A stretch of DNA of 64,000 nucleotides from a virus (Duplodnaviria; Heunggongvirae; Uroviricota; Caudoviricetes). Numbering within the stretch: the first letter of the stretch is position 1; every line of letters starts with the position of its first letter. Shown one piece after another: positions 35,075-63,898 of this stretch. The notes beneath the pieces are model-generated. The model searched no databases, had not been told where the DNA came from, and worked only from the letters and a program-made list of their open reading frames with translations. A program made the position numbers and the translations under genes. The stretch spans positions 21,023 through 85,022 of IMG/VR virus record IMGVR_UViG_2974636330_000001; one strand, given 5' to 3'.

Positions 35075-35416
35075 ATGGCGGATGAAGCGGACTTGGCGGA
35101 CGGCTACGGGGAGACACTCGTAGCCATTGCGCTGATGGCGATGCAGACACATAGGTCAGTCGAAAACGATGAACCTTGTGAGTTCTGTGAAGAGAATCCC
35201 CGCGAAAAGCTTAGGAACGGGGTCTGTAGTAAACTGTGCGAACGGTGCAGGCTGGAGAAGGAAGCAGAGGACGCCTTGAAAGTCCTCCCCGTCACAGTAG
35301 TGGCGGAGCAGCCGCAGCAAGGTGACAACGAAGACGACACGTGGACTCCCACGATGATCGACAAGCGCACATATCGAAAGAACTGGATGATAAAGGGCGA
35401 TCCATGCGTATTTTAG
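35075..35416 (+). CDS. Cys-rich hypothetical protein
   Basis: 113 aa; CEFCEEN...CSKLCERC. Confidence 0.45.
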   Translation: MADEADLADGYGETLVAIALMAMQTHRSVENDEPCEFCEENPREKLRNGVCSKLCERCRLEKEAEDALKVLPVTVVAEQPQQGDNEDDTWTPTMIDKRTYRKNWMIKGDPCVF

Positions 35417-36447
35417 TGACGGGCGGCTGTGGCTACATCGGCAAGAACGTGGTGATGAAGCTCCACGAGTTGGGGCACAGCATCATCATCGTGGATGACC
35501 TGACCAACGCCCCCATGGGGCCGCAGTGGCGGGAGTTCCTCCGTCAGAACAAGACCCACACCCAAGACCAGCCCGGAACGGTTGACCTGATCCCCATGGG
35601 GTTCGAGCAGCTGCCCGGGCTTGATGGTCTGGGTGTCCAGTGCGTCGTCCATCTGGCTGCCTGCAAGTCAGTCGTCCAGTCCAAACTGGACCCCGACACG
35701 TATTGGCAGAATAACGTCATAAACACCATCAAACTGGCGCGGGCCGCGAGGGCCGCAGGTGTAGAACTGTTTGTATATAGCTCAACAGCCAGTGTGTATG
35801 GAGAGAAGAACACCCCAGTAGTAGAGGGTGATCCCACGAACCCCATGAGTACCTACGGCCATACGAAACTCGCCAGCGAAGAGTATTTGGCCAGTATTTC
35901 GGCCATTTCGGGTATGAAATCGAGGGCGCTAAGGTATTTCAATGTGGTAGGAGCAGGACACTCCCCATGGGGTAGTAATACTCTGGGAGATAAGGGTAGA
36001 GACGCAGGCTCGACATTGTTCGGGAGGATCATCCGTCAGCATCCACCTGCCCTATCTGATCTGGTAATCCGTGGAAATAATCACGATACACCGGATGGAT
36101 TTGCCGTAAGGGATTACGTCCATGTGGAAGACCTCGCACAGGCACACGTAGACATAATCAGTAAGGAGTTCAGTTCACACCCATGGCCTACCCAGTACGA
36201 TGTGTTGAACGTCGGCACGGGCGTCGGCCATTCTGTGTGTGAGGTGTTGGAAGAGTTCAAGAAGCAAGGGTTCGATGTGCCGTATACCGTAGGCGCGGCG
36301 GACTCGACCGAGATTCCGTACAGTGTCTGTGACCCGAAGAAGTTGCAGGGGCTGTACGGGTGGAAGGCCCACCACGATCTCATGACCATGGTGGGGAGTA
36401 TGTTGGAGTTCGCTCCGACGTTGGCGGACCTGCAATCAATTGCATGA
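35404..36447 (+). CDS. NAD-dependent sugar epimerase/dehydratase, GalE-like (UDP-hexose 4-epimerase family)
   Basis: Rossmann motif VTGGCGYIG; SDR catalytic triad with Ser (YSSTAS) and YGHTK. 347 aa. Confidence 0.7.
   Translation: MRILVTGGCGYIGKNVVMKLHELGHSIIIVDDLTNAPMGPQWREFLRQNKTHTQDQPGTVDLIPMGFEQLPGLDGLGVQCVVHLAACKSVVQSKLDPDTYWQNNVINTIKLARAARAAGVELFVYSSTASVYGEKNTPVVEGDPTNPMSTYGHTKLASEEYLASISAISGMKSRALRYFNVVGAGHSPWGSNTLGDKGRDAGSTLFGRIIRQHPPALSDLVIRGNNHDTPDGFAVRDYVHVEDLAQAHVDIISKEFSSHPWPTQYDVLNVGTGVGHSVCEVLEEFKKQGFDVPYTVGAADSTEIPYSVCDPKKLQGLYGWKAHHDLMTMVGSMLEFAPTLADLQSIA
36431..36444 (+). repeat. TGCAATCAATTGCA (last codons of GalE-like gene, LQSIA-stop)
   Basis: exact match. Confidence 0.9.
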
Positions 36448-36867: not shown

Positions 36868-37926
36868 ATGTATGAGCTGACGTTGCAGACGCTGGGTTCC
36901 TCCCTGCACGCCCTGCCCCAGACCATTTGGGTGAAAGACAGTCCGGGCGACTGGGGTGACCTGATCACCAGCATGATGAGCCGCAAGACGTGGGAGAAGC
37001 TCCCGCAGATGAAGCATTTGAACCCCGCACGTAAGTGGGAAGTCGTCAGTGCATATCAGAAGGCAGTCCGGCGAGGTGATCTGGCAGTGGCCCTGAAGAT
37101 GGTCGCTGCAATTGATTGCACGGGGGATCAGGAGATGCTGAAGTACCTGTGGCGTCGAGTGCTTACGACCGTCGCAGAAGACTGTGGCCCTGCCAGCCCG
37201 GGCCTGATGGCATTCGTGATGGCCGCCCATGAGTGGACCAAGAAGGAAGTCTGGGGTTCGCAAGTTGCGATCATCGCTGTCCTGACGGAAATGATGTGCC
37301 TCTACCCCCGCAGCCGCACGTATTGTGCGATGAGCATCATTGAAGGGAAGTTGAAGGAGAAGCTGAAGGCCGGGGGCGGCTATGTGGACCTGTCGATGAC
37401 CCCGCTGGATGATTGGGAGCTGGAGTTCCTCGACTACCTGACCAACCGTCCGGATGAGCTGGACCAGACCGTGGCGCAGTGGTGCCGTAAGAAGGGCTGG
37501 CTGACCGAACACCTGTCCGACTACTACAGCTTCACCCCCGAGCTGGTGGATCGACCGGAAGAGCAGTTCCCGGCATCGGAGACGATTGCGGGCCTGCCGT
37601 CGTATGCGTACGACATGCACACGAAGATCGGCAAGACCCTGTTGTACAAGATCGGCGGGGAGCCTGAGCTGGGCATCCTGAAAGATACGGCGTGCAACGA
37701 CAAGCCGAAGGCGTTGGGCTGGGCGATGTTCTTCTGTGAGGGTGGGCGCATCCGGGATGAACTGTTGGATGTGCGTATTGCCCAGCTGGAGAAGAAAGTG
37801 GCCTATGGTCAGTTCGGTATGTCGGCAGAAGAAGGCGACGCACTGGAGAAGGCCATGTGGCTGGTAATCGACTCGGGTCGGGTGAATGCCCGGCGTGCGT
37901 ATGCAGCGAAGGCCATGTATGGATAA
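36868..37926 (+). CDS. hypothetical protein (352 aa)
   Basis: Leader GTAATGGAGTAAAGACATG after a terminator plus TATATT. Confidence 0.5.
   Translation: MYELTLQTLGSSLHALPQTIWVKDSPGDWGDLITSMMSRKTWEKLPQMKHLNPARKWEVVSAYQKAVRRGDLAVALKMVAAIDCTGDQEMLKYLWRRVLTTVAEDCGPASPGLMAFVMAAHEWTKKEVWGSQVAIIAVLTEMMCLYPRSRTYCAMSIIEGKLKEKLKAGGGYVDLSMTPLDDWELEFLDYLTNRPDELDQTVAQWCRKKGWLTEHLSDYYSFTPELVDRPEEQFPASETIAGLPSYAYDMHTKIGKTLLYKIGGEPELGILKDTACNDKPKALGWAMFFCEGGRIRDELLDVRIAQLEKKVAYGQFGMSAEEGDALEKAMWLVIDSGRVNARRAYAAKAMYG
37107..37120 (+). repeat. TGCAATTGATTGCA (in CDS, other frame: AIDC)
   Basis: exact match. Confidence 0.9.
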
Positions 37927-41476: not shown

Positions 41477-41669
41477 CGTATGTAGAAGTGCCTGTTTATG
41501 TGCTGAAAGTGCGTATCGACAAAGTGGTGTGAAGAGAAAAGAATGGCCTTTTAACGTGCCGAAGAGGATAATAGTTCGCATAAGACTTTAGGCTAGGGCC
41601 ACAGATGATCCGGGGACGTGACCATGGGTGGAGTCATGGAAGGACGATCAGAGCGAACCTGCACAGGTT

Positions 41670-41683
41670 TGCAATCAAATGCA
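41670..41683 (+). repeat. TGCAATCAAATGCA (1-mismatch copy, upstream of rhomboid gene RBS)
   Basis: one substitution. Confidence 0.6.
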
Positions 41684-41697
41684 CAGGAGGTAGTGCT

Positions 41698-42225
41698 GTG
41701 AAAGCGATCTGCGTCGGGTTGTTGATGCTCGCCGTGCTGGAGATTCTGGCACCACGTACGCTGAACTGGATGATCCTGTGGCCAGACCGTAGGTTCGAGC
41801 CGTGGCAACCACTGACGTACTGGATGGTGCATGTTGGCCTGCTCCATGTGCTGACGAACGTCGGCATCGTGTGGGTGATGGCGCGCGATCTGGAGTGGCG
41901 GTACAGCCTGTTGGAAATCGGAGGCTGTTTCATTGTGGCGTGTGTCGTAGGCGGCTGCCTCCATGCGCTGGTGTCGAGTACCCCGATTGCGGGTGCGTCG
42001 GCAGGAGTATTCGCCCTGATGGTGATGTACATCATGAGCTTCCCGTACAAGAAGCTGGGATGGTTCACGTTGGGCAAGTTGCTGATCCCACTGTTTGTCC
42101 TGCAAAGCGTGATGGGGGTGGTCTGGACCGGCCAGATTCCCCACCTTGTAGGCATGGTAGTGGGCTTGTGCTGGATGATGTTTTGTGGCAAGGCCGTTCG
42201 TTCGGAGCGACCGACCCTGATATAG
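41698..42225 (+). CDS. rhomboid-family intramembrane serine protease
   Basis: GTG after AGGAGG. About 6 TM helices in 175 aa. TM2 has H-x3-N (HVLTN), TM4 has GASAGVFALM (G-x-S-x-G, catalytic Ser region), TM6 has IPHLVGMVVGL (catalytic His, HxxGxxxG). Confidence 0.55.
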   Translation: MKAICVGLLMLAVLEILAPRTLNWMILWPDRRFEPWQPLTYWMVHVGLLHVLTNVGIVWVMARDLEWRYSLLEIGGCFIVACVVGGCLHALVSSTPIAGASAGVFALMVMYIMSFPYKKLGWFTLGKLLIPLFVLQSVMGVVWTGQIPHLVGMVVGLCWMMFCGKAVRSERPTLI

Positions 42226-42283: not shown

Positions 42284-42877
42284 ATGCAACTGTCCCTGTT
42301 CCAGAATGCGTTCCTGATCCGTAACAAGGAAGGCTACGGCTACCACAAAGACCTCCCGAAGCCGCTGACCTACGAAGGCGACACCAAGTCCATCGAGTTC
42401 CAGCTGGCCGAGCTGGGCTATGAAGTGGCCTACGTCACCAAGGGTGCGCCGAAGGCCGACAAGAAGGACAAGGCCGACGCCGAGAAGAACGGCGAATACC
42501 ACAGCCCGGACGTGTCGGACTGGAATCCGGAAGCGCCGAGCCTGAGCGGCAAGTCCGGCAAGGGCTTCGAGACCGAGGGCGAGAACAAGAAGCTGACCCC
42601 GGAAGCGAACGCAGCCCAGATCAAGGCCCAGAAGGGCGGCGATGATGCCAAGGGCTTCCCGCGTGATTCGGATTCGAAGGACTTGCTGTCGAACGACCCG
42701 TGGCATCTGGTCGCGGTGTATGACACCGACGACAAGGGTCCGACCGCCATGTTCGCCCGCAAGAAGGTCCAGAAGGCTGACACCCCGGAAGAGAATGAAG
42801 TGGTCGCCGAAAAGCGCAAGGAGCGCATGGAAGTGACTGCCGACGACCGGATCAGCGGACGCGAAGGCATCCAGTGA
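42284..42877 (+). CDS. hypothetical low-complexity (Lys/Asp/Glu-rich) protein
   Basis: 197 aa; RBS GAAGGAGAACG. Confidence 0.5.
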   Translation: MQLSLFQNAFLIRNKEGYGYHKDLPKPLTYEGDTKSIEFQLAELGYEVAYVTKGAPKADKKDKADAEKNGEYHSPDVSDWNPEAPSLSGKSGKGFETEGENKKLTPEANAAQIKAQKGGDDAKGFPRDSDSKDLLSNDPWHLVAVYDTDDKGPTAMFARKKVQKADTPEENEVVAEKRKERMEVTADDRISGREGIQ

Positions 42878-43134
42878 TGAAAGCCCTGTTCAAGAATCCG
42901 GTGTTCGTGGTGGCTTTGATCGCCTCGGTGGTGTATCTGGTGTTCGGCCTGTCGATCTTCTTCGGGCCGCACAGTGGGTTGCTCAGTTGGATTCTGGGCG
43001 GGGTGATCGCGCTGGTGATCGCTGCGTTGTGGGTTGCCGTGTACAAGGGAGCGACGACCTACTCGACTGCGAAAGACGCCGTGGATCAGTCATGGGATGA
43101 CCTGCGGGATCGCATCGATAAGGGCGAAAAATAG
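42874..43134 (+). CDS. small membrane protein
   Basis: Two TM segments. Confidence 0.4.
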   Translation: MMKALFKNPVFVVALIASVVYLVFGLSIFFGPHSGLLSWILGGVIALVIAALWVAVYKGATTYSTAKDAVDQSWDDLRDRIDKGEK

Positions 43135-43209: not shown

Positions 43210-43848
43210 ATGAAGAGTCTCGTGATCGTGCCGCACATGGACGATGAAGTCCTGAGTTGCGGGGGCCTGATCCAGAACCGGACTGAAGTGCGCGTGCTGG
43301 TGGTGTACGGCAGGCACTACCCCGAGCTGTCCGGACAAGAACTGTGGGATAAGCAGGCGGAGCAGATACAGCACTTCAATGCGGCGTGCGGAATGCTGAA
43401 AGTCGAATCGGTAGTGTTCCTGAACATGCCGGAGGGGGAGCCGCATCAGGTGGGCTACTACCGGGTGTTGGAGCAGCTGGAGTCCCGACTGAAGTCCTTC
43501 CAGCCTGAAGAAGTCGTGTTCCCCGGGGAGTTCGACCAGAACCAAGACCACGTGATGCTGAACCACGTTGGCCGCATCCTGATGCGTCCCGGAAACCTCG
43601 GAAACGTGAAGCGCGTGTTGAAGTCGATTGCCCACGATAGTATCCTGACGCAGCCGACCTATTTCGTGCCGATGAACAGCAATCAGATGAAGAACAAGCT
43701 GAATGCCATGCGTTGCTACGAAGACGAAGTGCGCGAAAACCCCCATCCCCGCAGTCTCGACAACATCGAGGCGCTGGCCCGTGTCCACGGTAGCAAGTGC
43801 GGCCACGAGTTCGCCGAAGGCTACATCACCCACATGATCAAGGAATAA
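43210..43848 (+). CDS. LmbE/PIG-L family N-acetyl-sugar deacetylase
   Basis: Leader CTAATGGAGTAAGTATG. N-terminal VIVPHMDDEVLSCGG (the PIG-L HxDDE motif) and a second FDQNQDHVMLNH motif. Confidence 0.6.
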   Translation: MKSLVIVPHMDDEVLSCGGLIQNRTEVRVLVVYGRHYPELSGQELWDKQAEQIQHFNAACGMLKVESVVFLNMPEGEPHQVGYYRVLEQLESRLKSFQPEEVVFPGEFDQNQDHVMLNHVGRILMRPGNLGNVKRVLKSIAHDSILTQPTYFVPMNSNQMKNKLNAMRCYEDEVRENPHPRSLDNIEALARVHGSKCGHEFAEGYITHMIKE

Positions 43849-43852
43849 CAAG

Positions 43853-44794
43853 ATGCGCGTTGCAATCACTGGCGGCACCGGATTCATCGGTACGAACCTG
43901 ACTAAGTACCTGCAAGAGAACGAGCCGAACACCGAAATCGTACTGGTTGATCTGGTCGCTCCGTGCATCGAACTCGGGCCGAAGACGAAGTTCGTCTATG
44001 CCGATATCCGGAACCTGAAGTCGCTGTTGAACGCCTTCGACGGCTGCGATGAAGTCTACAATCTGGCAGGCATCCTCGGCACGTCCGAACTGCTGTCGAT
44101 CAGTTCGCTGGCCTGCGAAACGAATATCGTCGGCGCGTGCAACGTCTTCGACGCCTGCATCGAGAAGGGCGTGAAGCGGGTGTACAACGTGGCGAAGCCG
44201 CACTTCGAAGGGTACGCGGAGAACGCCTACACCCTGACGAAGCACTCGGGCGAACTGCTCGGCCTGATGTACCGCAAGACGTACGGCCTCGACGTGGCAA
44301 CCGTCCGCTGGCTCAACGCAGTCGGCCCGTACCAGCACCTGTATCCGGTGCGTAAGTTCCTGCCGATGATGATCCTGCAAGCCTTCTATGGCTACGACCT
44401 CGAAGTCTACGGCAGCGGCAAGCAGACCATCGACCCCATCGACACCCGCGATCTGGCCCGCTTCACCCTGCACGCCTGCCGCGAGCTGGGCCAGCACCCG
44501 GACGTGGTTGACCTCGGCTCGGGCCGTGCAATCAGTTGCAACGACGCGGCGGAGCTGATCCTGAAGCTGGTGAAGGAAGCTGGCATCAAGACCGACAGCA
44601 AGGTGATCCACGTACCGATGCGTCCGGGCGAGGCTGACGATATCAACCTGTGCGCCGACACGACCTACTGGGATTCGGTGGGCATGAAGACCGAGTTCTC
44701 GTTCGAAGATTCGATCCGCGACACGATCCAGTACATGCGGAACCTCCCGGCGTACCACATGCAGAACGCCCTCCATTTCTACGGGCTGACCTGA
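43853..44794 (+). CDS. NAD-dependent nucleotide-sugar epimerase/dehydratase (extended SDR)
   Basis: MRVAITGGTGFIGTNL Rossmann motif; catalytic YTLTK. Confidence 0.7.
   Translation: MRVAITGGTGFIGTNLTKYLQENEPNTEIVLVDLVAPCIELGPKTKFVYADIRNLKSLLNAFDGCDEVYNLAGILGTSELLSISSLACETNIVGACNVFDACIEKGVKRVYNVAKPHFEGYAENAYTLTKHSGELLGLMYRKTYGLDVATVRWLNAVGPYQHLYPVRKFLPMMILQAFYGYDLEVYGSGKQTIDPIDTRDLARFTLHACRELGQHPDVVDLGSGRAISCNDAAELILKLVKEAGIKTDSKVIHVPMRPGEADDINLCADTTYWDSVGMKTEFSFEDSIRDTIQYMRNLPAYHMQNALHFYGLT
44527..44540 (+). repeat. TGCAATCAGTTGCA (1-mismatch copy, in epimerase CDS)
   Basis: one substitution. Confidence 0.6.
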
Positions 44795-45840
44795 TGGATA
44801 TCGTGACCTCCCTGAAGAACCCCCAGCGGCAGGGGCGCATCCATGACCTGATCACTCAGGTGATGAACAGTGGGAAGTACGCCGAAGGCCCGAAGCTGAA
44901 GGAGTTCGAGCGCATCCTGTCCGAACAGCACCGCATGTACTTCGCCACGGCGACGAACAGTTGCGGCTCGGCCCTGTTCGCGGTGTTCTCGTACCTGAAG
45001 TCTAAGGGCGCGGAGACGGTGGCGATCCAGAACAACACGTTCTACGCCACGGCGGCGATGGCGCTGGCAGCTGGCTTGAAGGTAGCTCTGGTGGACAACC
45101 GCAAGGACTGCCCGAGCATGTCGGTTGACAGCCTGCGGACCCTGCACAGCCAGATCAAGATCGACGCGGTGGTGCTGACCCATGTCGGTGGGTATCTGGC
45201 CAAGGACTACAGTTCGATTGCGGAGTTCTGCGAGTTCGAAGCGATCCCGCTGATCGAAGACGGGGCGCATTCGTACGGTGTCCGTGAGCGCGACCTGTTC
45301 GCCGGAGCGTTGGGCGTTGCCACGACCCTGAGCTTCTACCCGACCAAGAGCATCCCGATTGGTGAGGGCGGCGCGGTGATCACCCGCGATCCGGAACTGG
45401 ACCAGTACGTGCGTCGGTTCATCAGTTACGGCAAGCACGTCGAAGACGGCGTGATGAAGTACGACGGGATCGGCTTCAACTTCCGTATGTCTGAAGTGCA
45501 GGCAGCGGTCGGCATTGTCCAGCTGGAGAACGTGGACCAGATCGTCGGAGGCCGTGACCGTGATGCCCGTGTGCTGGCTCAGTTCATGGCTCCCCTCCTG
45601 AGCGGACCGACGAACTGGTACAAGTACATCGTGCCGAAGGCAGTCGGCTTCAAGACTGTCGGAGCGGTGTATACCGAAACCGACCAGATCACCGGGACTG
45701 GGTTGGAAGTAGCGACCCCGGTGTCGTTGGACAACAGCAAGAACTGGGCCGCCAGTCACATGTGTCTGCCGATTGGCGAAGGCATGTATGACGGGCTTTC
45801 GATGGAAGAAGTCTCCAACTACCTGAAGGGTGAAGCGTGA
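44794..45840 (+). CDS. DegT/DnrJ/EryC1/StrS-family PLP-dependent sugar aminotransferase
   Basis: TLSFYPTKSIPIGEGGAVIT (the PLP-lysine motif SFxxxKxxxxGEGG). Fold-type I layout. TGATG overlap. Confidence 0.75.
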   Translation: MDIVTSLKNPQRQGRIHDLITQVMNSGKYAEGPKLKEFERILSEQHRMYFATATNSCGSALFAVFSYLKSKGAETVAIQNNTFYATAAMALAAGLKVALVDNRKDCPSMSVDSLRTLHSQIKIDAVVLTHVGGYLAKDYSSIAEFCEFEAIPLIEDGAHSYGVRERDLFAGALGVATTLSFYPTKSIPIGEGGAVITRDPELDQYVRRFISYGKHVEDGVMKYDGIGFNFRMSEVQAAVGIVQLENVDQIVGGRDRDARVLAQFMAPLLSGPTNWYKYIVPKAVGFKTVGAVYTETDQITGTGLEVATPVSLDNSKNWAASHMCLPIGEGMYDGLSMEEVSNYLKGEA

Positions 45841-46517
45841 AAGTTCGTCAGACCGATGTGAGCGAAGCCGATATCAAGTCGGCCAAGATTTTCTTCGATG
45901 CGGTGCTGGGGTTCTTCGACCTGAGCAACGCGACCGTGCTGGATGCGTTCGCGCGTAACGGCCAGCTGACCGTCTCGAACTACCACGACCATGTGGGCGC
46001 GGTGGAGTGCTGGGAACTGGGGCCGGAGCATGAAGAAGCCCTGCGCAAGTACACCGACGAAGTGAAGATCGGCGACAGTTACAGTCTGCTGGATGGCATG
46101 GGTGCCAGCCTGTACGACATGATCGTGATCGACACCCCGCAGGGCCTGCACAAGGACAACCACGGAGCGGTGATGTGCGAGCATTTCGACTTCCTACCGC
46201 ACGCCATTTCGTTGCTGACCGAGGGAGGCATCGTCGTCCTGTACTGCAACAAGGCCCCGTACGACAAGGACAAGGAAGGCAGTCAGGGGTACGACGAGTA
46301 CGAAGAGTACGACTTCAAGAACTGGATGGCAGCCCGGCAGAACTTCTACAACGTCAGCAATGGCCGCGAAGTCGCAGAAGAAGACATGCTGATCGCGTAC
46401 CGTGATCTGATCGCAGACGAAGGCCGCGAGCTGGGCCGTGTCGTCATGATCCCGTGCTTCTCGGACGTACCGAACAAGGAACCGTACGCCTTCCGTCTGG
46501 CTCTCGAAATCCTGTAA
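45837..46517 (+). CDS. putative class-I SAM-dependent methyltransferase-like protein
   Basis: VLDAFARNG (motif-I-like) and DMIVIDTPQG (DPPY-like). Weak match; function uncertain. Confidence 0.3.
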   Translation: MKVRQTDVSEADIKSAKIFFDAVLGFFDLSNATVLDAFARNGQLTVSNYHDHVGAVECWELGPEHEEALRKYTDEVKIGDSYSLLDGMGASLYDMIVIDTPQGLHKDNHGAVMCEHFDFLPHAISLLTEGGIVVLYCNKAPYDKDKEGSQGYDEYEEYDFKNWMAARQNFYNVSNGREVAEEDMLIAYRDLIADEGRELGRVVMIPCFSDVPNKEPYAFRLALEIL

Positions 46518-46540
46518 CGGGCCGACAAGAAGTTCCACCC

Positions 46541-46572
46541 AAGGGCTGGTAGTGAAGTGCCAGCCCTTTTTC
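46541..46572 (+). terminator. rho-independent terminator after the sugar-cluster methyltransferase-like gene
   Basis: AGGGCTGGTAGTGAAGTGCCAGCCCTTTTTCA. Confidence 0.55.
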
Positions 46573-46577
46573 ATGAG

Positions 46578-46773
46578 GAAGATAAAGATGAGCAAGCTGG
46601 CCGAACGTTACAAAGAAGCCCTGAAGGAAGACCCCCGTTTCATCGACCCGGCAGCCGAAGCGGCAGAGCTGGAGCTGACCGTGGAAATGATCCGACAGCA
46701 TGTCAAGTCGCGCCTGTACAACGGCGACAACTACGACGTGATCCAGAAGATTCTCGGGGAGGATTTGCTATGA
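46578..46773 (+). CDS. small hypothetical protein
   Basis: ATG after AGGAAGATAAAG, downstream of the terminator AGGGCTGG...CCAGCCCTTTTT. Confidence 0.35.
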
Positions 46774-47192
46774 ACTGGAGTTGGGCCAAGGTGATGTGGC
46801 TGGGCCTCGTCATTGTGCTGTGCAGCCTCCTTCCGGAGAGCCTGCTCCCACGCCCACTGGGAGTGCTGATCGTCCTTGCAGTGCTTCTGGTGGTCCTGAT
46901 GATCGACCCCACGGCCATGCGCTCGGACTACTCAGGGCATCGGTGGATGTTGCGGGACCACTTCGAAGTCATGTTGGCCAGACGTGTGGTGGAGTACGAC
47001 GTACTGATCCAGCGCGGACTGCCGACACCAGAGCTTTCGGGGCTGAAATGTGAGATCGAGACGGCTACGAAGTACCTGTTCCGTCTGTTCCCACGGCGCT
47101 ACGTAGGGTGGACAGAGCTGGACCGCGACTGGGCAGATCGCGTACTATTGTCGGCAGACAAGACCCTTCTGGCGTACGTGGACCAACAATGA
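46770..47192 (+). CDS. membrane protein
   Basis: Two TM helices at the N-terminus. Confidence 0.4.
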   Translation: MNWSWAKVMWLGLVIVLCSLLPESLLPRPLGVLIVLAVLLVVLMIDPTAMRSDYSGHRWMLRDHFEVMLARRVVEYDVLIQRGLPTPELSGLKCEIETATKYLFRLFPRRYVGWTELDRDWADRVLLSADKTLLAYVDQQ

Positions 47193-48643
47193 AAATCCTG
47201 TTCGACGTGGTGTACACGAACCGACCGAGCGTCTGCTCGACCTCCTATTTGGTGTGGGAGCTGATCGAACGGTTGATGGAGTGGCGTGACGACATTTTCT
47301 TCTATGTCACGTACCCGCCGAACAAGATCAACGATGATGATCAGGAGTTTCTGGCACGGCACAGTGATCGGGTCCGTCTGCTGCCGGTGACCTCTGAACC
47401 GACCGACCGCGTGAGCGAACTGTTCTCGATCCCGCGCGAGCTGAAGAAGTATTTCGTACCGTGGAACAGCGAATGCTGGGACTATGACGTGGTGGTGAGC
47501 AGCCGCGTCCCGATGCTCGGAGCGTTCTGGCCCCACTTCGCACGGTACAGCGGCAGGAAGATGCCCGGCACCCGGGCCGTGTTCGGGCTGGAAGAAATGC
47601 CAGTGCTGCCGTTCCGAAAGACCGTGCCGTGGCACGAGCATCTGCATCTGCAATCAATTGCAAGTTACCTGCATTCGACCGGCATCCTGATCAACAACCA
47701 GTGGACGCTCACCGAGCTGAAGAAGGTGGGGCGTGATCTGCTGTCCCCGGCGCAGCTGAAGAAGCTGATGACCAAGGTCCACGAAGTGGTGCCGGTGCGC
47801 CTGACTCGCCTGAACCTGAAGAAAGACCTGACCGTAGGGGCGGAGTTCAACGTCACGTTCGTGGGCCGAGTGACCAGTACCCGAAACGTGGCGCAGGTGC
47901 TGGACCTGTTCCGTAAGCAGTTCGCGTACCCGATTGGGAAGACCGACATGCGGTTCCTGATCAGCACGAACAGCCTGTCGATGGGCGGCACCGACTACGG
48001 TGAGATGGACTTCATCGACATGCAGATGAACAACCGGAAGGAGTTCTACGAGTTCCTCGGCAAGGCACATGTCGCAGTCAACCTGACCCACGTAGAGGAT
48101 TTCAGCCTGTCCACGTGGGAGACCCTGCTCAACGGCGTGCCGGTGATCGTGTTGGATGAAGCATGGAACAGTTTCCTCGGGCCGGACTACCCGTTCCGGG
48201 TGAAGTCGCAGGTCGAGGCGTACGCCATGTTGAACGCCATGGTGAAAGACTATCCGGCCATGTACCAGAAGTTCGTGGACTGGGAAGCGTCGTACTGGGC
48301 CGCGTATGTGGACAGCGACAAGAACGTCACGACCTCGGAGAAGCTGATCGAGCTGATCGACAACTACGAGACGTGGCGCGATGGCCACCTGTCCGGAGAC
48401 GAACAGGGCAAGAGCTACAAGCTGGAGCTGGACGAGTTCCTGAAGGACGATCCGCAGGTGATCGACCTGACGGCCTACCTGAAGGACAAGAACAACGGAA
48501 CGGCCTTCCACGACGGCAAGTCGGAGTTCTTCTCCCTGCCGCTGGCGAAGGTGCCGAACAACCACCTGATCAAAGTGCTGGCTGGCCTGCGCGGCTACCG
48601 CGATACGAACCAAGTCGGCGTGATGGTGAAGGAGCAGCCGTGA
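47189..48643 (+). CDS. glycosyltransferase, GT-B fold (GT4-like)
   Basis: C-terminal EDFSLSTWETLLNGVPVIV matches the GT4 E-x7-E donor-binding motif. 484 aa. Confidence 0.65.
   Translation: MKILFDVVYTNRPSVCSTSYLVWELIERLMEWRDDIFFYVTYPPNKINDDDQEFLARHSDRVRLLPVTSEPTDRVSELFSIPRELKKYFVPWNSECWDYDVVVSSRVPMLGAFWPHFARYSGRKMPGTRAVFGLEEMPVLPFRKTVPWHEHLHLQSIASYLHSTGILINNQWTLTELKKVGRDLLSPAQLKKLMTKVHEVVPVRLTRLNLKKDLTVGAEFNVTFVGRVTSTRNVAQVLDLFRKQFAYPIGKTDMRFLISTNSLSMGGTDYGEMDFIDMQMNNRKEFYEFLGKAHVAVNLTHVEDFSLSTWETLLNGVPVIVLDEAWNSFLGPDYPFRVKSQVEAYAMLNAMVKDYPAMYQKFVDWEASYWAAYVDSDKNVTTSEKLIELIDNYETWRDGHLSGDEQGKSYKLELDEFLKDDPQVIDLTAYLKDKNNGTAFHDGKSEFFSLPLAKVPNNHLIKVLAGLRGYRDTNQVGVMVKEQP
47649..47662 (+). repeat. 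TGCAATCAATTGCA (in glycosyltransferase, LQSIA)
   Basis: exact match. Confidence 0.9.
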
Positions 48644-48951
48644 GCGACTACCTGATCAAGTCCATGATTCTGGCCGCAATCGCAGTAGTGATGGCGTTCC
48701 TGTTGTGGGGCCTGATCCGGGGCGTTCGGGAGAGTTTGCGTGCCTTGTGGTGGGTGCGTTATCAGCGTAGGATGATGGAACTGGGGGCGTGGCTCGACCG
48801 ATTCGAGACCCTGCAACCCGTGATTGTTTCGGAGGGGCGCAGGCTGGTAGCGGTGGAAGTAGCCGATGCAGATGCGGACCTGAGTTTGGAAAACTTCCTG
48901 AAGAAATATGGAGTGAACGAACGTGAGTTCTGCACCACTTACGGCCATTGA
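48640..48951 (+). CDS. membrane protein
   Basis: GTG overlapping the upstream stop; TM segment MILAAIAVVMAFLLWGLI. Confidence 0.35.
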   Translation: MSDYLIKSMILAAIAVVMAFLLWGLIRGVRESLRALWWVRYQRRMMELGAWLDRFETLQPVIVSEGRRLVAVEVADADADLSLENFLKKYGVNEREFCTTYGH

Positions 48952-49777
48952 AAAGACAGCGGCGCTTGGCCGAGTGATGCTGCCGGTCAGCAGTCTGTTC
49001 TCGAACGAGAAGAACCCGAACAAGATGAGCGATAAGGAGTTCAATCTCCTGTGCGACAACATCGAACGGGTGGGGATTACTGATCCGATCTTCGTGCGCG
49101 AACTGGAGGATGGGAAGTACCGTATCATCGGCGGCCACCACCGGTTCGAAGTGGCGAAGCTACTCGACTTCGTGGAAGTGCCCTGTACGGTGATCACCGA
49201 CCCGAACTTCTCGGAAGACGAAGAGTCGTTCCAAGTCATGCGCCACAATATGATCCGGGGTAAGCTCGACCCGGAGAAGTTCCAGCAGCTGTTTGCAGGG
49301 CTGAAGGAGCAGTACGCCGAAGACGTGATCGCGGAATCGTTCGGCTTCGCTGACGAGAAAGAGTTTGCCAAGGTCATGGCGCAGATGAAGAAGAAGCTGC
49401 CCAAGGACATGCAGGCAGCGTTCGAAGAAGCATCGAAAGAAATCAAGACCATCGACGGCCTGTCGAAGCTGTTGAATCGCCTGTTCTCGGAGCATGGCGA
49501 CACCCTGCCCTACGGCTACATGCTGATTGACTTCGGACAGAAGGACAGCATCTGGCTGCGTATGTCGAACGACACGCGCAAGGCGCTGCTGGAAGTGGGC
49601 AACCTGTGCAAGGCCCACGGACGGACCATGGATGATCTGCTGGGCGGCGTCGTGCAATCAATTGCAGCAGGCAACCACCCCGAACTGATGGCCCAGCTGG
49701 TGGCCAAGAGCAAGGAAGTGGTGATCCCCGAAGGGTTCAAGGAGTTGCCGACCGAGAATAATCTGGCGGTGGTCTGA
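48923..49777 (+). CDS. ParB-like nuclease domain protein
   Basis: KYRIIGGHHRFEVAKLL matches the ParB/Srx motif. Adjacent to the terminase genes, as often seen in phages. Confidence 0.55.
   Translation: MSSAPLTAIEKTAALGRVMLPVSSLFSNEKNPNKMSDKEFNLLCDNIERVGITDPIFVRELEDGKYRIIGGHHRFEVAKLLDFVEVPCTVITDPNFSEDEESFQVMRHNMIRGKLDPEKFQQLFAGLKEQYAEDVIAESFGFADEKEFAKVMAQMKKKLPKDMQAAFEEASKEIKTIDGLSKLLNRLFSEHGDTLPYGYMLIDFGQKDSIWLRMSNDTRKALLEVGNLCKAHGRTMDDLLGGVVQSIAAGNHPELMAQLVAKSKEVVIPEGFKELPTENNLAVV
49653..49666 (+). repeat. TGCAATCAATTGCA (in ParB-like gene, VQSIA)
   Basis: exact match. Confidence 0.9.
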
Positions 49778-52311: not shown

Positions 52312-53205
52312 GTGACTATCCAAGCCAAGGCCGTGATACTGGCCGACAGTATCTGCAACGGGATCAGGTTGTTGACCTTCCAGTTGCAGTACCAGCGGTT
52401 CATCCATGCGGAGTTCATGACCCACCGGGTGTTCTCCCGGAACGCAGGGTCGAGCCGAGCGAAACCTGTCCAGAAAGTGCTGGAGCAGGTGCGTACGAAC
52501 CCGGCGATGCCGTGCCACTGGGGCCTGAATCAGGCGGGTATGCAGGCCGACCACGAGAACGACGCCATCGTGTGGTATCCGGAGTACATGCGGAAGCCGT
52601 TGCAGGTGTTCCTCGGCATTCCGGATGAAGAGCTGGATGACGTGGAGCTGGGCCTGCTGCCGGAGTCGGCATGGAAGTTCAGTGCATGGCTGGCCACCGT
52701 GAGTGCAGAGGCATTCGACGCGGCGAAGTACCACAAGCAGGTGGTGAACCGTCTGCTGGAGCCGTACCAGTTCATCGACGTGGTAATGTCCACGACCGAT
52801 CTGCGCAACTGGAATGGCCTGCGCGATCACAAGCTGGCACAGCCTGAAATCCAAGTGCTGGCCAAGGTGATGAAGGAAGCGGTGAAGAACAGCACGCCGC
52901 GTCAGCTGAAGAAGGGCGAATGGCATCTGCCGTACATCAGCGACGAAGAACGCAAGATCATCAGCGCTCCGATGGTGCTGGCTGAAATCAGTGCGGCACG
53001 TACGGCGCGGGTGAGCATCACCCCGTTCGGCGAGAATGTGGTGTCCATCAAGAAGGACTTGGCACTGGCAGAACAGCTGGCTTCGGCCAACCCGATGCAC
53101 GCCAGCCCGTTCGAACACCCGGCACAGGCCATGGGCGACAGCAAGAAGTACGGCAACTTCGTCGGCTTCAAGCAGCTGCGCCAGTACAAGGAGGAGGCGG
53201 CATGA
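52312..53205 (+). CDS. thyX: flavin-dependent thymidylate synthase ThyX
   Basis: ThyX signature (R/T)HR-x7-S as FMTHRVFSRNAGSSRA. GTG start after GGAGCAAAGA. Confidence 0.65.
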   Translation: MTIQAKAVILADSICNGIRLLTFQLQYQRFIHAEFMTHRVFSRNAGSSRAKPVQKVLEQVRTNPAMPCHWGLNQAGMQADHENDAIVWYPEYMRKPLQVFLGIPDEELDDVELGLLPESAWKFSAWLATVSAEAFDAAKYHKQVVNRLLEPYQFIDVVMSTTDLRNWNGLRDHKLAQPEIQVLAKVMKEAVKNSTPRQLKKGEWHLPYISDEERKIISAPMVLAEISAARTARVSITPFGENVVSIKKDLALAEQLASANPMHASPFEHPAQAMGDSKKYGNFVGFKQLRQYKEEAA

Positions 53206-62686: not shown

Positions 62687-63898
62687 ATGGACATGCTGAA
62701 ACTGGCGGCGCAGGCCCGCATCCCCTTCATCGCGGTGAAGACCGATGACCTGATCTACAGCACCGATGTGCTGGAGTTCGTGACCGGCGAGAAGATCGCC
62801 CCGTTCTTCCCGGACAACCTCGGGCCTGACCTGAGCCAGCTGTCCTTGCCGGACTCCAATATCCTGTGGACTTCGTTGCAGATCGAGTCGAAGGAATTGT
62901 ACCTGAAACTCGAAATCGAGAAGAAGACGCTGGTGTTCATCAATCCGCCGAAGGCCAGTGCGTTGCACTTCAACGCAGGCCAGCTGTTGCCGCCGCGCGA
63001 CATGATCCACAAGTTCCTGAAGGACACCTTCAAGATCACCGCGAAGGCCGACGAACTGATCGGCGCGTTCGGTGGCCTGACCATGAAGGACACCCGCGAA
63101 CTGATCCAAATGTCGGTGGAAGAATGGGGCGACGTGACCCCCAAGATGATCAACGATCTGCGCCAGTCCTACGTGACCAAGCTGAAGGGCATGGTGCAGG
63201 TGGACACGACGCAGGACTACTACGCGATCCCGAAGTACCTGTCGAAGTGGCTGGGCGAGAACCTGATGTTCTTCACCGACGACGTGGCCGAAGCCCTGCG
63301 CCCGCGTGGCCTGCTGTTCGATGGCATCCCCGGCACCGGCAAGACCGCAGCGTCCAAGGCGATTGCGAACCAGCTGGGTATGCCGCTCTTCCGACTGGAC
63401 GTGGGCGGCATGAAGGGCAAGTACGTGGGCGACAGCGAAGGCAACCTCAACGCCGCGTTGCAGGCCATCGATCAGCTGGCCCCGTGCGTCGTGATCTTCG
63501 ATGAAATCGAGAAGATGTTCGGCGAACACCACGACGGCGGCACCACCGCGTCGATGCTCGGCACCCTGCTGTGGTGGTTGCAGGAACACAAGAGCAAGGT
63601 GCTGTCGATCATGACCACGAACAACAAGTCGGCCCTGCCGCCCGAACTGTACCGCGAAGGTCGTATCGACCAGACGATGTTGTTCAAGGGGCTGGAAACC
63701 TCGGACGAAGTGACGGCCTTCATCAACGGCCAGCTGGAAGCCACCTTGAAGAAGGTGGAAATCAAGGACGTGGACAGCCTGCGCAACACCCTGCATCAGA
63801 AGGTGAAGCTGAAGCCGCAGCCGGTGACGCAGGTGGCTATGACGAACCTGATCAACGAAGAAGTGAAGGCCCAGTTCCTGAAGGAGAAGGTGAAATGA
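62687..63898 (+). CDS. AAA+ ATPase, paralog of 9510..10667
   Basis: Leader CCAATGGAGTGTTAGATG behind TTGATT-N16-TACCAT. Walker A GIPGTGKT, Walker B VIFDEIEK, sensor-1 TTNN, arginine finger ELYREGRID. The N-terminal ~190 aa aligns with the first AAA+ protein. Confidence 0.75.
   Translation: MDMLKLAAQARIPFIAVKTDDLIYSTDVLEFVTGEKIAPFFPDNLGPDLSQLSLPDSNILWTSLQIESKELYLKLEIEKKTLVFINPPKASALHFNAGQLLPPRDMIHKFLKDTFKITAKADELIGAFGGLTMKDTRELIQMSVEEWGDVTPKMINDLRQSYVTKLKGMVQVDTTQDYYAIPKYLSKWLGENLMFFTDDVAEALRPRGLLFDGIPGTGKTAASKAIANQLGMPLFRLDVGGMKGKYVGDSEGNLNAALQAIDQLAPCVVIFDEIEKMFGEHHDGGTTASMLGTLLWWLQEHKSKVLSIMTTNNKSALPPELYREGRIDQTMLFKGLETSDEVTAFINGQLEATLKKVEIKDVDSLRNTLHQKVKLKPQPVTQVAMTNLINEEVKAQFLKEKVK

Follow-up and report, generated by a model that had tools for sequence, protein, structure and literature searches.

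Organization of the sugar cassette in phage DLP5

The window analysed here, a stretch of 64,000 nucleotides of viral DNA, is 100% identical to MG189906.1 (Stenotrophomonas phage DLP5), and all five genes considered below are annotated in that GenBank record. They encode a PIG-L-type de-N-acetylase, an SDR oxidoreductase, a DegT aminotransferase, a methyltransferase-like (MT-like) protein and a glycosyltransferase (GT), and by their predicted functions form a sugar-building and sugar-transfer cassette that occurs almost only in phages (Table 1). Genes for ParB, g108 and TerL, in that order, together with a ThyX-like gene and DUF3310, lie directly downstream. The five-gene sugar cluster that a first-pass annotation had placed upstream of a ParB/terminase/ThyX block is borne out in its ORFs (all on the plus strand, with coordinates unchanged), enzyme classes and position. 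That annotation had also described a virulent-type phage, which conflicts with the published account of DLP5 as a temperate phage maintained as a phagemid (PMC5834331). The cassette has the same GC content as the remaining DLP5 genome, and its five enzymes contain no TM segments and are all acidic (pI 4.5–6.0, with the MT-like protein at 4.5). What is new here is the conservation across phage lineages, the phage exclusivity of the GT family, the modular makeup of the cassette and the correction of several labels.

Table 1. Genes of the cassette and its surroundings, with positions in the window.
Feature	Gene	Position	Strand	Basis or remark
GalE-type UDP-hexose 4-epimerase	DLP05_082	35341..36447	+	PF01370, E 2.5e-38
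MgsA_C-like helical protein without ATPase domain	DLP05_084	36868..37926	+	homology to L012:5603-6661
PIG-L/LmbE-family zinc de-N-acetylase	DLP05_099	43210..43848	+	PF02585, 55.4 bits (cut-off 28.2)
Extended SDR, nucleotide-sugar oxidoreductase type	DLP05_100	43853..44794	+	PF01370, 111 bits; atypical active site
DegT/DnrJ/EryC1 PLP-dependent sugar aminotransferase	DLP05_101	44794..45840 (44794 is the true start)	+	PF01041, 188 bits
Class I methyltransferase-fold protein, new family	DLP05_102	45837..46517	+	AlphaFold2 model
Two small ORFs between MT-like gene and GT	DLP05_103, DLP05_104	46573..47192 (46573-46773; 46770-47192)	+	GenBank annotation; DLP05_104 has 2 TM segments
GT-B/GT4 retaining-type glycosyltransferase	DLP05_105	47189..48643	+	extra C-terminal domain, ~130 residues
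Small 1-TM ORF, Delepquintavirus-specific	DLP05_106	48640..48951	+	
ParB_N-domain protein, conserved GT neighbour	DLP05_107	48923..49777	+	PF02195, 38.6 bits

The sugar-building enzymes

The PIG-L protein matches phrog_11796 (E 8e-82), and its motifs H9-x-D11-D12-E13 and Q112-D113-H114 are invariant among 12 orthologues; the nearest solved relatives, diacetylchitobiose deacetylases, are reached at only E 3e-4. The SDR keeps GGxGxxG and Y126xxxK130. The S-T-D-E stretch of DesIV aligns to an invariant A114-K115-P116-H117 in this protein, and this replacement of the catalytic S/T-D-E rules out a canonical 4,6-dehydratase. The earlier assignment as a nucleotide-sugar 4,6-dehydratase/epimerase holds for the SDR family and not for canonical dehydratase activity. 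In DegT, the PLP lysine K185 and D156 are invariant; the enzyme carries the transaminase lysine rather than the histidine of ColD-type dehydratases.

The SDR and DegT pair resembles the bacillosamine, AAT and nonulosonic-acid precursor pathways (PglF/PglE, PseB/PseC and LegB/LegC), from which NDP-4-amino-4,6-dideoxy-HexNAc would be the expected product. In NCBIfam the SDR matches RmlB (score 96.5, cut-off 365) and LegB (65.8, cut-off 475) best, and the aminotransferase PseC (151, cut-off 423) and LegC (111, cut-off 420). Unlike the enzymes of those pathways, the cassette proteins score 3–7 fold under equivalog cut-offs, A-K-P-H replaces the S/T-D-E or T-D-K stretch in the SDR, and the cassette contains no N-acetyltransferase, synthase or CMP-activating enzyme.

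The MT-like protein has no sequence match in Pfam (RrnaAD included), NCBIfam or PDB, and its AlphaFold2 model (pLDDT 93.7) adopts a class I methyltransferase fold. It belongs to a phage-only family, separate from NodS and GenN, with altered SAM and substrate motifs, and is predicted to N-alkylate the amine freed by PIG-L.

The GalE-like protein, which matches solved GalE 7kn1 (E 1.2e-47) and has the canonical SSTAS...YGHTK residues, is likely an accessory supplier of a galacto- or gluco-configured donor. Among the loci examined the gene was seen only in Delepquintavirus and was not found flanking the cassette in other clade members. It had been listed as a separate gene; the gene is real, and is probably not separate, since the neighbouring MgsA_C-like gene has homologues that head the cassette in other phages. 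The MgsA_C-like protein is 33% identical (E 3e-50) to the product of L012:5603-6661, directly upstream of PIG-L in that locus, with weaker matches to the equivalents in RcZahn and locus L009; PF12002 (MgsA_C) is recorded for the homologue in locus L040. Beyond DLP5 itself, DLP05_103 and DLP05_104, which the first-pass annotation did not mention, have homologues in Summit and DLP3 alone, and this restriction to Delepquintavirus indicates that the two ORFs are probably not core to the cassette.

The glycosyltransferase is the constant core of a modular cassette

The cassette was found in at least 18 lineages of 80–110 kb siphophages of Stenotrophomonas, Vibrio, Rhodobacter and Rhizobium, in every one beside ParB-x-TerL. 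Judged by gene content, its constant core is the GT, which is 36–70% identical across cassettes in phages of gamma- and alpha-proteobacteria and adjoins ParB at nearly all loci, as well as in Vibrio phage VH2_2019. The GT and ParB pair recurs in Arthrobacter phage DanielleIgnace (37% identity, E 1e-51), alongside PIG-L-like and MgsA_C-like genes. Around the GT, SDR with DegT and PIG-L with the MT-like gene are gained or lost as pairs; the latter two are both present at 15 loci and both absent at three, with PIG-L alone at one. In VH2_2019 the same slot holds a different tailoring set, two WbqC-like genes and another methyltransferase. Such diversification fits a molecule in an arms race.

The GT family has a single match in 185,579 bacterial species genomes. 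Pfam places it best in GT4-conflict, a family of predicted conflict-system effectors with substrates unassigned (PMC8195603). Its closest structural neighbours, including BshA, LmbT, SenB and a tetrahydrobiopterin glucosyltransferase, act on lipid-linked or small-molecule acceptors. The name BshA is unsupported for this protein, which has no NCBIfam match. Since the cassette is conserved across hosts and exclusive to phages, its target must be phage-intrinsic; the lack of TM segments and the genome-like GC content point the same way.

Restriction resistance and site avoidance

Only 4 of 36 enzymes cut DLP5 DNA (PMC5834331), and DLP3 DNA is uncut by SmaI, ClaI and EcoRI (PMC7326821). The DLP5 genome strongly avoids restriction sites: 26 of the 64 palindromic hexamers are purged, so the published resistance is largely explained by site avoidance. 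SmaI, ClaI and EcoRI, with at least 50, 14 and 6 sites, respectively, are the only informative enzymes among the published digests. Sites that are abundant comprise SmaI/XmaI (57), PvuII CAGCTG (90), MscI TGGCCA (75), BclI TGATCA (66) and BstBI TTCGAA (52).

A model for decoration of phage DNA

The first-pass annotation was right to leave the target open between phage DNA, virion and host envelope. Of these, DNA is the best supported, and judging from gene content and context the likeliest role of the cassette is to furnish the DNA of the phage itself with a positively charged amino sugar. This reading, in which an N-acetyl amino sugar would be joined to the DNA and would then undergo de-N-acetylation and N-alkylation, is tentative, its probability falling somewhat short of even. 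Every step of this chemistry is drawn from family membership and gene co-occurrence. SDR and DegT would turn an NDP-N-acetylhexosamine into an NDP-4-amino-4,6-dideoxy-HexNAc-type donor, by the logic of PglF/PglE, PseB/PseC and LegB/LegC. This step is uncertain because the SDR has no canonical dehydratase residues; alternatively, the two enzymes might oxidise and transaminate the sugar after transfer. A role for the GalE-like enzyme in fixing the donor's configuration at C4 is possible in DLP5. The GT4 enzyme would then move the sugar to the acceptor, PIG-L would remove the 2-N-acetyl group of the attached sugar, and the MT-fold enzyme would alkylate the freed amine. GlcNAc glycosides are, to our knowledge, the substrates of all characterised PIG-L enzymes, and deacetylation followed by N-methylation has parallels in NodB/NodS (Nod factor) and in GenD and then GenN (gentamicin biosynthesis). 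This chemistry would yield a (methyl)amino or diamino-trideoxyhexose. A base of replicated phage DNA would be the likeliest acceptor; the neighbouring ParB-like and MgsA_C-like proteins may bring the enzymes to the DNA before it is packaged, and the benefit would be protection against host nucleases. The cassette would be phage-intrinsic and expressed in lytic growth, for which the abundance of the SDR orthologue gp97 in DLP3 virion preparations argues (PMC7326821).

Intact, invariant catalytic motifs support the enzyme identities, and the constant position beside ParB-x-TerL supports DNA as the target. The uncut state of DLP3 DNA with SmaI, ClaI and EcoRI and the few enzymes that cut DLP5 DNA count in the same direction, as does the failure to find in DLP5 a DNA methyltransferase or any further gene of established DNA modification. 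Glycosylation of phage DNA is established in T4, where alpha/beta-GT enzymes act on 5hmC. RB69, Acinetobacter DLP3 and HY126 have arabinosyl-5hoC DNA, and DNA glycosyltransferase activity is proven for phage GT-B enzymes of the GT4/BshA-like type (PMC13326640). Metagenomic MT-TET-GT(-epimerase) clusters install Hex, HexNAc or HexA on 5hmC; DNA GTs have been reported adjoining ParB-like and terminase genes, in some cases with a sugar epimerase as partner and in some with HexNAc as the sugar installed (bioRxiv 10.1101/2023.12.21.572611). The DLP5 cassette shares with these systems a GT-B/GT4-like transferase next to replication and packaging genes, phage-encoded accessory nucleotide-sugar enzymes, a glycan diversified between relatives and reported restriction resistance of the DNA. 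It differs from them in its de-N-acetylase, transaminase and N-alkyltransferase-like tailoring, which has not been described for DNA glycans.

Several observations count against DNA, which is here a putative acceptor. No ThyA-like hydroxymethylase, 5hoC synthase, TET/JBP or DpdA that would create the acceptor was found in DLP5. The acidic proteins do not suggest DNA binding, and the acceptors of the GT's structural neighbours are of other kinds. With blanket protection of the DNA, the hexamer purge would not be expected, and inside a single clade the ParB-TerL synteny may reflect common descent instead of function. DLP5 DNA was successfully sequenced by Illumina Nextera and PCR/Sanger methods (PMC5834331). 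The earlier argument from ThyX, DUF3310 and MazG as signs of nucleotide modification also fails: the ThyX-like family is ordinary and widespread, occurring in >1000 phage records, those of N4-like, PB1-like and ICP1 phages among them, and no MazG-like NTPase was matched in Pfam among ~60 proteins scanned.

Alternative targets and products

Phage-encoded GTs glycosylate virion proteins in mycobacteriophages and chloroviruses, where, as in DLP5, the virus encodes both GTs and sugar-nucleotide enzymes, there acting on its own components. A cassette that builds an amino sugar for attachment by the GT to capsid, tail or internal proteins would satisfy the need for a phage-intrinsic target, and agrees with giant-virus and actinophage GT-B enzymes among the structural matches and with co-purification of the SDR orthologue with DLP3 virions. 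In the known systems, however, the genes sit with structural genes or the capsid is a proven substrate, whereas the DLP5 cassette lies with ParB and TerL in the replication and packaging region, away from head and tail genes, and its glycoprotein is putative. The DLP3 major capsid protein had no modification reported at 92% peptide coverage (PMC7326821). Virion glycosylation also leaves the resistance to SmaI, ClaI and EcoRI unexplained, and we consider it unlikely.

Less probable again is a soluble amino-glycoside, formed by adding GlcNAc to a small host metabolite, deacetylating it and tailoring the product with SDR, DegT and the MT-like enzyme for counter-defence or inter-phage competition. 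Attachment of GlcNAc followed by deacetylation is the hallmark of GT4 and PIG-L pairs in bacillithiol (BshA/BshB), mycothiol (MshA/MshB), paromamine (BtrM/BtrD) and lincomycin pathways, and gentamicin biosynthesis uses the same five enzyme classes. The structural neighbours of the GT, its GT4-conflict assignment (PMC8195603) and the acidic, soluble nature of all cassette proteins are consistent with such a product. Against it, no 2-deoxy-scyllo-inosose synthase, inositol-phosphate synthase or cysteine ligase (BshC/MshC) was found in DLP5, an exporter is absent, and both the tight GT-ParB-TerL linkage across phyla and the DNA phenotype go unaccounted for. The specific resemblance to mycothiol or bacillithiol synthesis raised by the first-pass annotation did not survive: no cassette enzyme is an equivalog of BshA, BshB or BshC, or of the Msh and Btr enzymes, the BshB1 score of 25.9 bits falling well below the cut-off of 182.5.

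Modification of the host surface or lysogenic conversion, a suggestion already published, would make the genes morons that alter LPS, O-antigen or the type IV pilus receptor and exclude superinfecting phages. Both DLP5 and DLP3 are temperate phages that use type IV pili and change the phenotype of their hosts (PMC5834331, PMC7326821), and in Delepquintavirus the cassette is bordered by small TM proteins and a rhomboid protease. GT4 enzymes such as WaaG and PglA use lipid-linked acceptors. Yet the same GT is found where host envelopes are different, in phages infecting Vibrio, Rhodobacter and Rhizobium and, in a distant form, Arthrobacter, and its family is absent from bacterial chromosomes but for that one match. 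Gtr, Wzx and Und-P components are absent, the TM neighbours are not conserved beyond the genus, the composition is not moron-like and the SDR is abundant in lytic lysates. This is the least probable of the three alternatives, though close to the soluble product.

The published "Erm" label of the MT-like gene is unsupported. An erythromycin-resistance rRNA methylase independent of the sugar genes, as proposed for DLP3 gp99 from an HHblits match to Erm(45) and better growth of the lysogen at 144–188 ug/ml erythromycin, is highly improbable. The growth effect was observed in the lysogen, which is less resistant at low doses and generally faster growing (PMC7326821). The protein matches no RrnaAD family, and its gene sits inside the sugar cassette across >75 phage homologues from varied hosts and co-occurs with PIG-L.

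A phage-exclusive, modular cassette linked to a ParB-like gene

The five-gene sugar cluster recognised in the first-pass annotation is correct at the gene level, its genes having been annotated before this analysis. It lies in Stenotrophomonas phage DLP5, and the window shares 92% identity with phage Summit and 84% with Stenotrophomonas phage DLP3, both of the same genus, Delepquintavirus. DLP5 is temperate and kept as a phagemid (PMC5834331), contrary to the virulent-type lifestyle first proposed. A literature search found no experimental characterisation of the cassette; the NAR 2026 paper on "DLP3" concerns an unrelated Acinetobacter phage.

Relatives of the cassette were searched for by tblastn and protein searches. 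The same gene set was found in Rhodobacter phage RcZahn, Vibrio phage KarBoss, Rhizobium phages RHph_TM16 and Y1_11, and dozens of metagenomic contigs, the longest of 92–112 kb. The usual order is MgsA_C-like, PIG-L, SDR, DegT, methyltransferase (MT)-like, glycosyltransferase (GT), ParB, x, TerL, and one sub-lineage has the cassette placed after TerL. In DLP5 the MgsA_C-like gene is displaced 5 kb upstream and now adjoins the GalE-like gene. The latter gene is real, and its initial description as separate is probably wrong given this neighbour; both genes probably belong to the same system as the cassette. The GC content of the cassette is in line with that of the rest of the genome. Between 35 and 54 kb, promoter-like sites occur at chance (7 vs 7.6), and nearly all terminator-like matches fall on the non-coding strand.

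The full gene set is present in about 14 lineages. Three lineages have only SDR, DegT and GT, one has only PIG-L, MT-like and GT, and one has the full set without the MT-like gene and with homing endonuclease ORFs inserted. This module composition shows that the PIG-L and MT-like genes travel together (Fisher p 0.004 on loci, with few evolutionary events behind it). More distant phages retain the slot and vary its content. Vibrio phage VH2_2019 has a PIG-L gene, two WbqC-like genes, an unrelated methyltransferase and a distant GT4 before ParB. Arthrobacter phage DanielleIgnace encodes a full-length homologue of the DLP5 GT (hhalign 98.4%) followed by an orthologous ParB-like protein (37% identity, E 1e-51), and also carries an MgsA_C-like gene, a second GT and a PIG-L-like hydrolase.

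One genome per species from 185,579 bacterial and archaeal species yielded a single match to the GT family, on a 4.4 kb MAG contig. GT-pattern scans of metagenome and genome collections returned few, short loci and are useful only as evidence of the family's restriction to phages. That the cassette is phage-exclusive, modular and ParB-linked across phyla is new here.

Features of DLP5 and related phages discussed in the text. Window coordinates equal DLP5 record (MG189906.1) coordinates minus 21022; L-numbers denote sequences outside the window; L004 and L008 complete the DLP5 genome, L008 continuing it beyond the window end.
Feature	Location	Remark
Classical-AAA-domain protein genes	window 9510-10667 and 62687-63898	53 kb apart
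GalE-like gene (DLP05_082)	window 35341-36447	
MgsA_C-like gene (DLP05_084)	window 36868-37926	
Rhomboid-family protease and small TM-protein genes	window 41605-42225, 42874-43134, 46770-47192, 48640-48951	
PIG-L	window 43210-43848	+ strand
SDR	window 43853-44794	+ strand
DegT	window 44794-45840	+ strand
MT-like	window 45837-46517	+ strand
GT (DLP05_105)	window 47189-48643	+ strand
ParB-like (DLP05_107)	window 48923-49777	
ThyX-like (DLP05_110)	window 52312-53205	adjoins TerL; GenBank "hypothetical"
Block downstream of TerL	L008:5584-10996 (DLP5 record 85583-90995)	just past window end
DSP/PTP-type phosphatase (DLP05_143)	L008:10208-10996	outside window
DLP3 gp99	L003:8744-9424	orthologue of MT-like gene
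HNH-like homing endonuclease ORFs	L014:6702-7313 and L014:9396-10013	one metagenomic phage
GNAT/HTH/RapZ-like genes before cassette	L005:1579-4497, L007:4415-5616, L009:5349-6491, L016:2620-4537	
DanielleIgnace MgsA_C-like, GT, PIG-L-like, ParB-like and methyltransferase genes	L043, 54000-60819	

Folds and active-site motifs of the cassette enzymes

The GT has the two-Rossmann GT-B fold of CAZy GT4-type retaining enzymes, in a confident AlphaFold2 model built with 59 homologues (pLDDT 91.2). Its EX7E motif in the C-terminal Rossmann domain is E303-D-F-S-L-S-T-W-E311, both glutamates being invariant in the 59 homologues. The DLP5 protein itself scores below threshold against the Pfam Glycos_transf_1 and GT4-conflict families (16.3 and 17.1 bits vs cut-offs of 26.4 and 26); among its relatives, 53/59 match PF20706 and 41/59 match PF00534 at E < 0.01. 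An NCBIfam search with the GT gave no match whatever. Neither the name BshA given to the GT nor the bacillithiol/mycothiol pathway suggested in the first-pass annotation is borne out: the GT matches no BshA equivalog, PIG-L scores 25.9 against the BshB1 cut-off of 182.5, and no BshC was found.

PIG-L matches PF02585 at 55.4 bits (gathering score 28.2), and its metal/base motifs H9, D11, D12 and D113-H114 are invariant among orthologues. DegT matches PF01041 at 188 bits (gathering score 19.8) and contains the PLP lysine K185, rather than a dehydratase-type His, within S180-F-Y-P-T-K185, which is invariant among orthologues. Assignment of DegT to the PseC, LegC, WecE or ArnB equivalogs fails, the best being PseC at 151 bits vs a cut-off of 423.5.

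The SDR is an extended SDR (PF01370, 111 bits) with the NAD motif G8-T-G10-F-I-G13 and an invariant catalytic Y126-T-L-T-K130; the GGxGxxG pattern is likewise kept throughout the orthologues. In an alignment with DesIV, V-S-T-D-E-V-Y-G of the latter corresponds to N-V-A-K-P-H-F-E-G; the A-K-P is invariant across 14 orthologues and the H nearly so. Because A-K-P-H stands where DesIV and RmlB have the catalytic S-T-D-E, the protein cannot be called a canonical NDP-hexose 4,6-dehydratase, and its score against the RmlB family TIGR01181 is 96.5 vs a cut-off of 365. The earlier dehydratase/epimerase label holds for the extended-SDR family and not for the canonical dehydratase residues. The DLP3 orthologue is abundant in virion preparations and is therefore expressed in the lytic phase. 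For the sugar family, nearest NCBIfam relatives could be named (RmlB/LegB for the SDR, PseC/LegC for DegT), all of them far below the equivalog cut-offs.

The MT-like protein has no sequence match in Pfam, NCBIfam or PDB. Its confident AlphaFold2 model (76 homologues, pLDDT 93.7) shows a Rossmann-like class I methyltransferase fold, with D36-A-F-A-R40-N-G42 at motif I, for which the canonical form is GxGxG, and D99-T-P-Q-G, comparable to DPPY, as motif IV. The top fold match is TYW2, an aminocarboxypropyl transferase, and the group transferred may be methyl or another derived from SAM. GenBank names the DLP3 orthologue, gp99, an Erm rRNA adenine N6-methyltransferase; the protein belongs to the Erm/KsgA (RrnaAD) family neither by sequence nor by fold, and its genomic context lends the annotation no support either. 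The gene for the published "Erm(45)-like erythromycin resistance protein" is a fixed member of the cassette. The basis offered for the Erm label was an MIC shift in a lysogen rather than a single-gene test (PMC7326821). Both DLP5 and DLP3 are candidates for phage therapy of S. maltophilia, and the literature now treats cassette genes as "morons" that confer virulence or resistance (Erm, LPS modification); the conserved, phage-intrinsic status of the cassette alters the safety assessment for phage therapy.

Palindrome avoidance weakens the restriction evidence for modified DNA

DLP5 DNA was reported to be cut by only 4/36 enzymes (PMC5834331) and DLP3 DNA by 0/15 (PMC7326821). In the 96.5 kb DLP5 genome, 26/64 palindromic hexamers occur at zero copies, vs 113/4032 non-palindromic hexamers. 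The avoidance is extreme and bimodal, the remaining palindromes lying at or above expectation (TGATCA 66, CAGCTG 90, TGGCCA 75 and CCCGGG 57 copies). CTAG is found 12 times vs 349 expected, and relatives of DLP5 show the same trend. Among other four-base sites, GATC is present 644 times and CCGG 701 times. No consistent sequence rule dividing retained from purged palindromes was found.

Of the 15 enzymes tried on DLP3, eleven lack any site in the DLP5 window, and only five of that panel have sites in 68 kb of DLP3 (SmaI 50, ClaI 14, EcoRI 6, NdeI 2, XbaI 1). Most of the published "resistance" is absence of sites, because the panel enzymes mostly have none. The resistance of DLP3 DNA to SmaI, ClaI and EcoRI implies some modification, which may be no more than a modest one. 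For blanket-protected DNA, strong purging of sites is unexpected. Palindrome avoidance undermines the restriction-panel evidence for "heavily modified DNA", which is weaker than published; a restriction panel cannot diagnose modified DNA where the genome has purged its sites.

Pfam and PHROGs searches of about 60 DLP5 proteins, a set with many ORFans in which sensitivity is limited, revealed no enzyme making an acceptor hydroxyl (ThyA-like 5hm-dC/dU or 5hoC synthase, TET/JBP or DpdA). Neither a dNTPase, a DNA methyltransferase nor the MazG-like NTPase reported initially was found in the same scan. DLP05_110, the true ThyX-like gene, whose product has no PDB sequence match, was considered as a neofunctionalised base hydroxymethylase and rejected: 1034 phage records contain the family, and some of these phages have ordinary DNA. 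DLP05_143, "thymidylate synthase thyX" in GenBank, is not a second ThyX and matches Pfam DSP/PTP-type phosphatase families rather than Thy1. Likewise, DLP05_003 ("ParB-like nuclease") is not a hidden DNA methyltransferase; it encodes a head protein of the Mu-F-like type whose C-terminus is ParB-like. Every protein of the cassette is acidic, overall charge being an ambiguous proxy for DNA binding.

The acceptor and a possible chemistry

The first-pass annotation had named the virion, the phage DNA and the host envelope as likely targets. The GT has kept 36–70% identity across hosts with unrelated envelopes and is absent from bacterial chromosomes, and should therefore act on a component that phages share. 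The persistent linkage of the cassette to a ParB-like DNA-binding protein and terminase points to DNA, as do two precedents. GT-B enzymes of the GT4/BshA-like type transfer arabinose to 5-hydroxycytosine in DNA (PMC13326640). Metagenomic DNA glycosyltransferases have been found encoded beside genes for ParB-like proteins and terminase; a sugar epimerase accompanies some of them, and some add HexNAc to 5hmC (bioRxiv 10.1101/2023.12.21.572611). We tentatively take DNA as the acceptor. Virion proteins are an unlikely acceptor, and a soluble metabolite is less likely still. Least probable is a host-surface target, the published proposal being that "moron" genes modify LPS or the host membrane (PMC5834331, PMC7326821): besides the distribution of the GT, no GtrA/GtrB/Gtr(type), Wzx/Wzy or Und-P-linked families were found, none of the five enzymes has a TM segment, and the neighbouring TM proteins are genus-specific.

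A chemistry may be proposed from the enzyme families and from gene co-occurrence. The SDR and DegT resemble the dehydratase/C4-transaminase pairs of the bacillosamine, pseudaminic and legionaminic pathways and may produce an NDP-4-amino-4,6-dideoxy-HexNAc-type donor; alternatively, they could oxidise and transaminate the sugar after transfer. The GT4 would move the sugar onto the acceptor. Characterised PIG-L enzymes act on GlcNAc glycosides, and PIG-L here would strip the 2-N-acetyl group from the attached sugar. The MT-fold protein might then alkylate the freed amine; its FARNG and DTPQG motifs resemble the amino-methyltransferase DPPY type, and PIG-L co-occurs with it. Such deacetylate-then-alkylate steps share the logic of NodB/NodS and of gentamicin tailoring, and would yield a cationic sugar of the (methyl)amino or diamino type.

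It is possible, if rather doubtful, that Delepquintavirus-like phages and their distant Vibrio and Arthrobacter relatives assemble a cationic sugar, resembling those of aminoglycosides, on the DNA itself. In this scheme a 2-(methyl)amino or 2,4-diamino-2,4,6-trideoxyhexose would arise by GT4 transfer followed by de-N-acetylation and N-alkylation on the polymer, with an as yet unrecognised enzyme supplying the acceptor base. The ParB-like and MgsA_C-like proteins might couple modification to replication and packaging, and the swappable tailoring modules could be tools in an arms race with restriction and modification-dependent nucleases.

If the target is DNA, the cassette would represent a new chemical variant of phage DNA glycosylation, would add deacetylase, transaminase and N-alkyltransferase tailoring to the known hypermodification repertoire, and would use an acceptor base made by an unrecognised route. 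An amino sugar on DNA would be without precedent among DNA hypermodifications, as would a PIG-L enzyme acting on nucleic acid.

Genes flanking the cassette

Several additional features were observed around the cassette. Delepquintavirus alone has a gene for a rhomboid-family protease and three for small TM proteins beside or within it. One metagenomic phage has two related HNH-like homing endonuclease ORFs in its cassette, one of which occupies the usual MT-like position. In DanielleIgnace the GT homologue, the ParB-like gene and a methyltransferase lie at the genome end, next to the terminase; for the related cluster AT phages, the original publication described genome ends as not readily determinable.

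Ahead of the cassette, the alpha-proteobacterial phage versions encode a GNAT acetyltransferase, an HTH protein and a protein resembling the RapZ C-terminal domain (PF22740). Domains of the RapZ type are associated with the control of hexosamine metabolism, which hints that UDP-GlcNAc supply is manipulated.

A block downstream of TerL is conserved across the clade, being found in L007, L009, L011, L016, L018 and L041 as well as in DLP5. It encodes a dikinase (PPDK_N plus PEP-utilizers) from which the PEP/pyruvate TIM barrel is missing, two phosphatases of the DSP/PTP type and a 338-aa basic protein (phrog_20946); dikinase and phosphatase together recall glucan-water dikinase with glucan phosphatase. 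Elsewhere in the window, two proteins of 385 and 403 aa annotated as hypothetical contain a C-terminal classical AAA domain (PF00004, E about 1e-28 to 1e-31).
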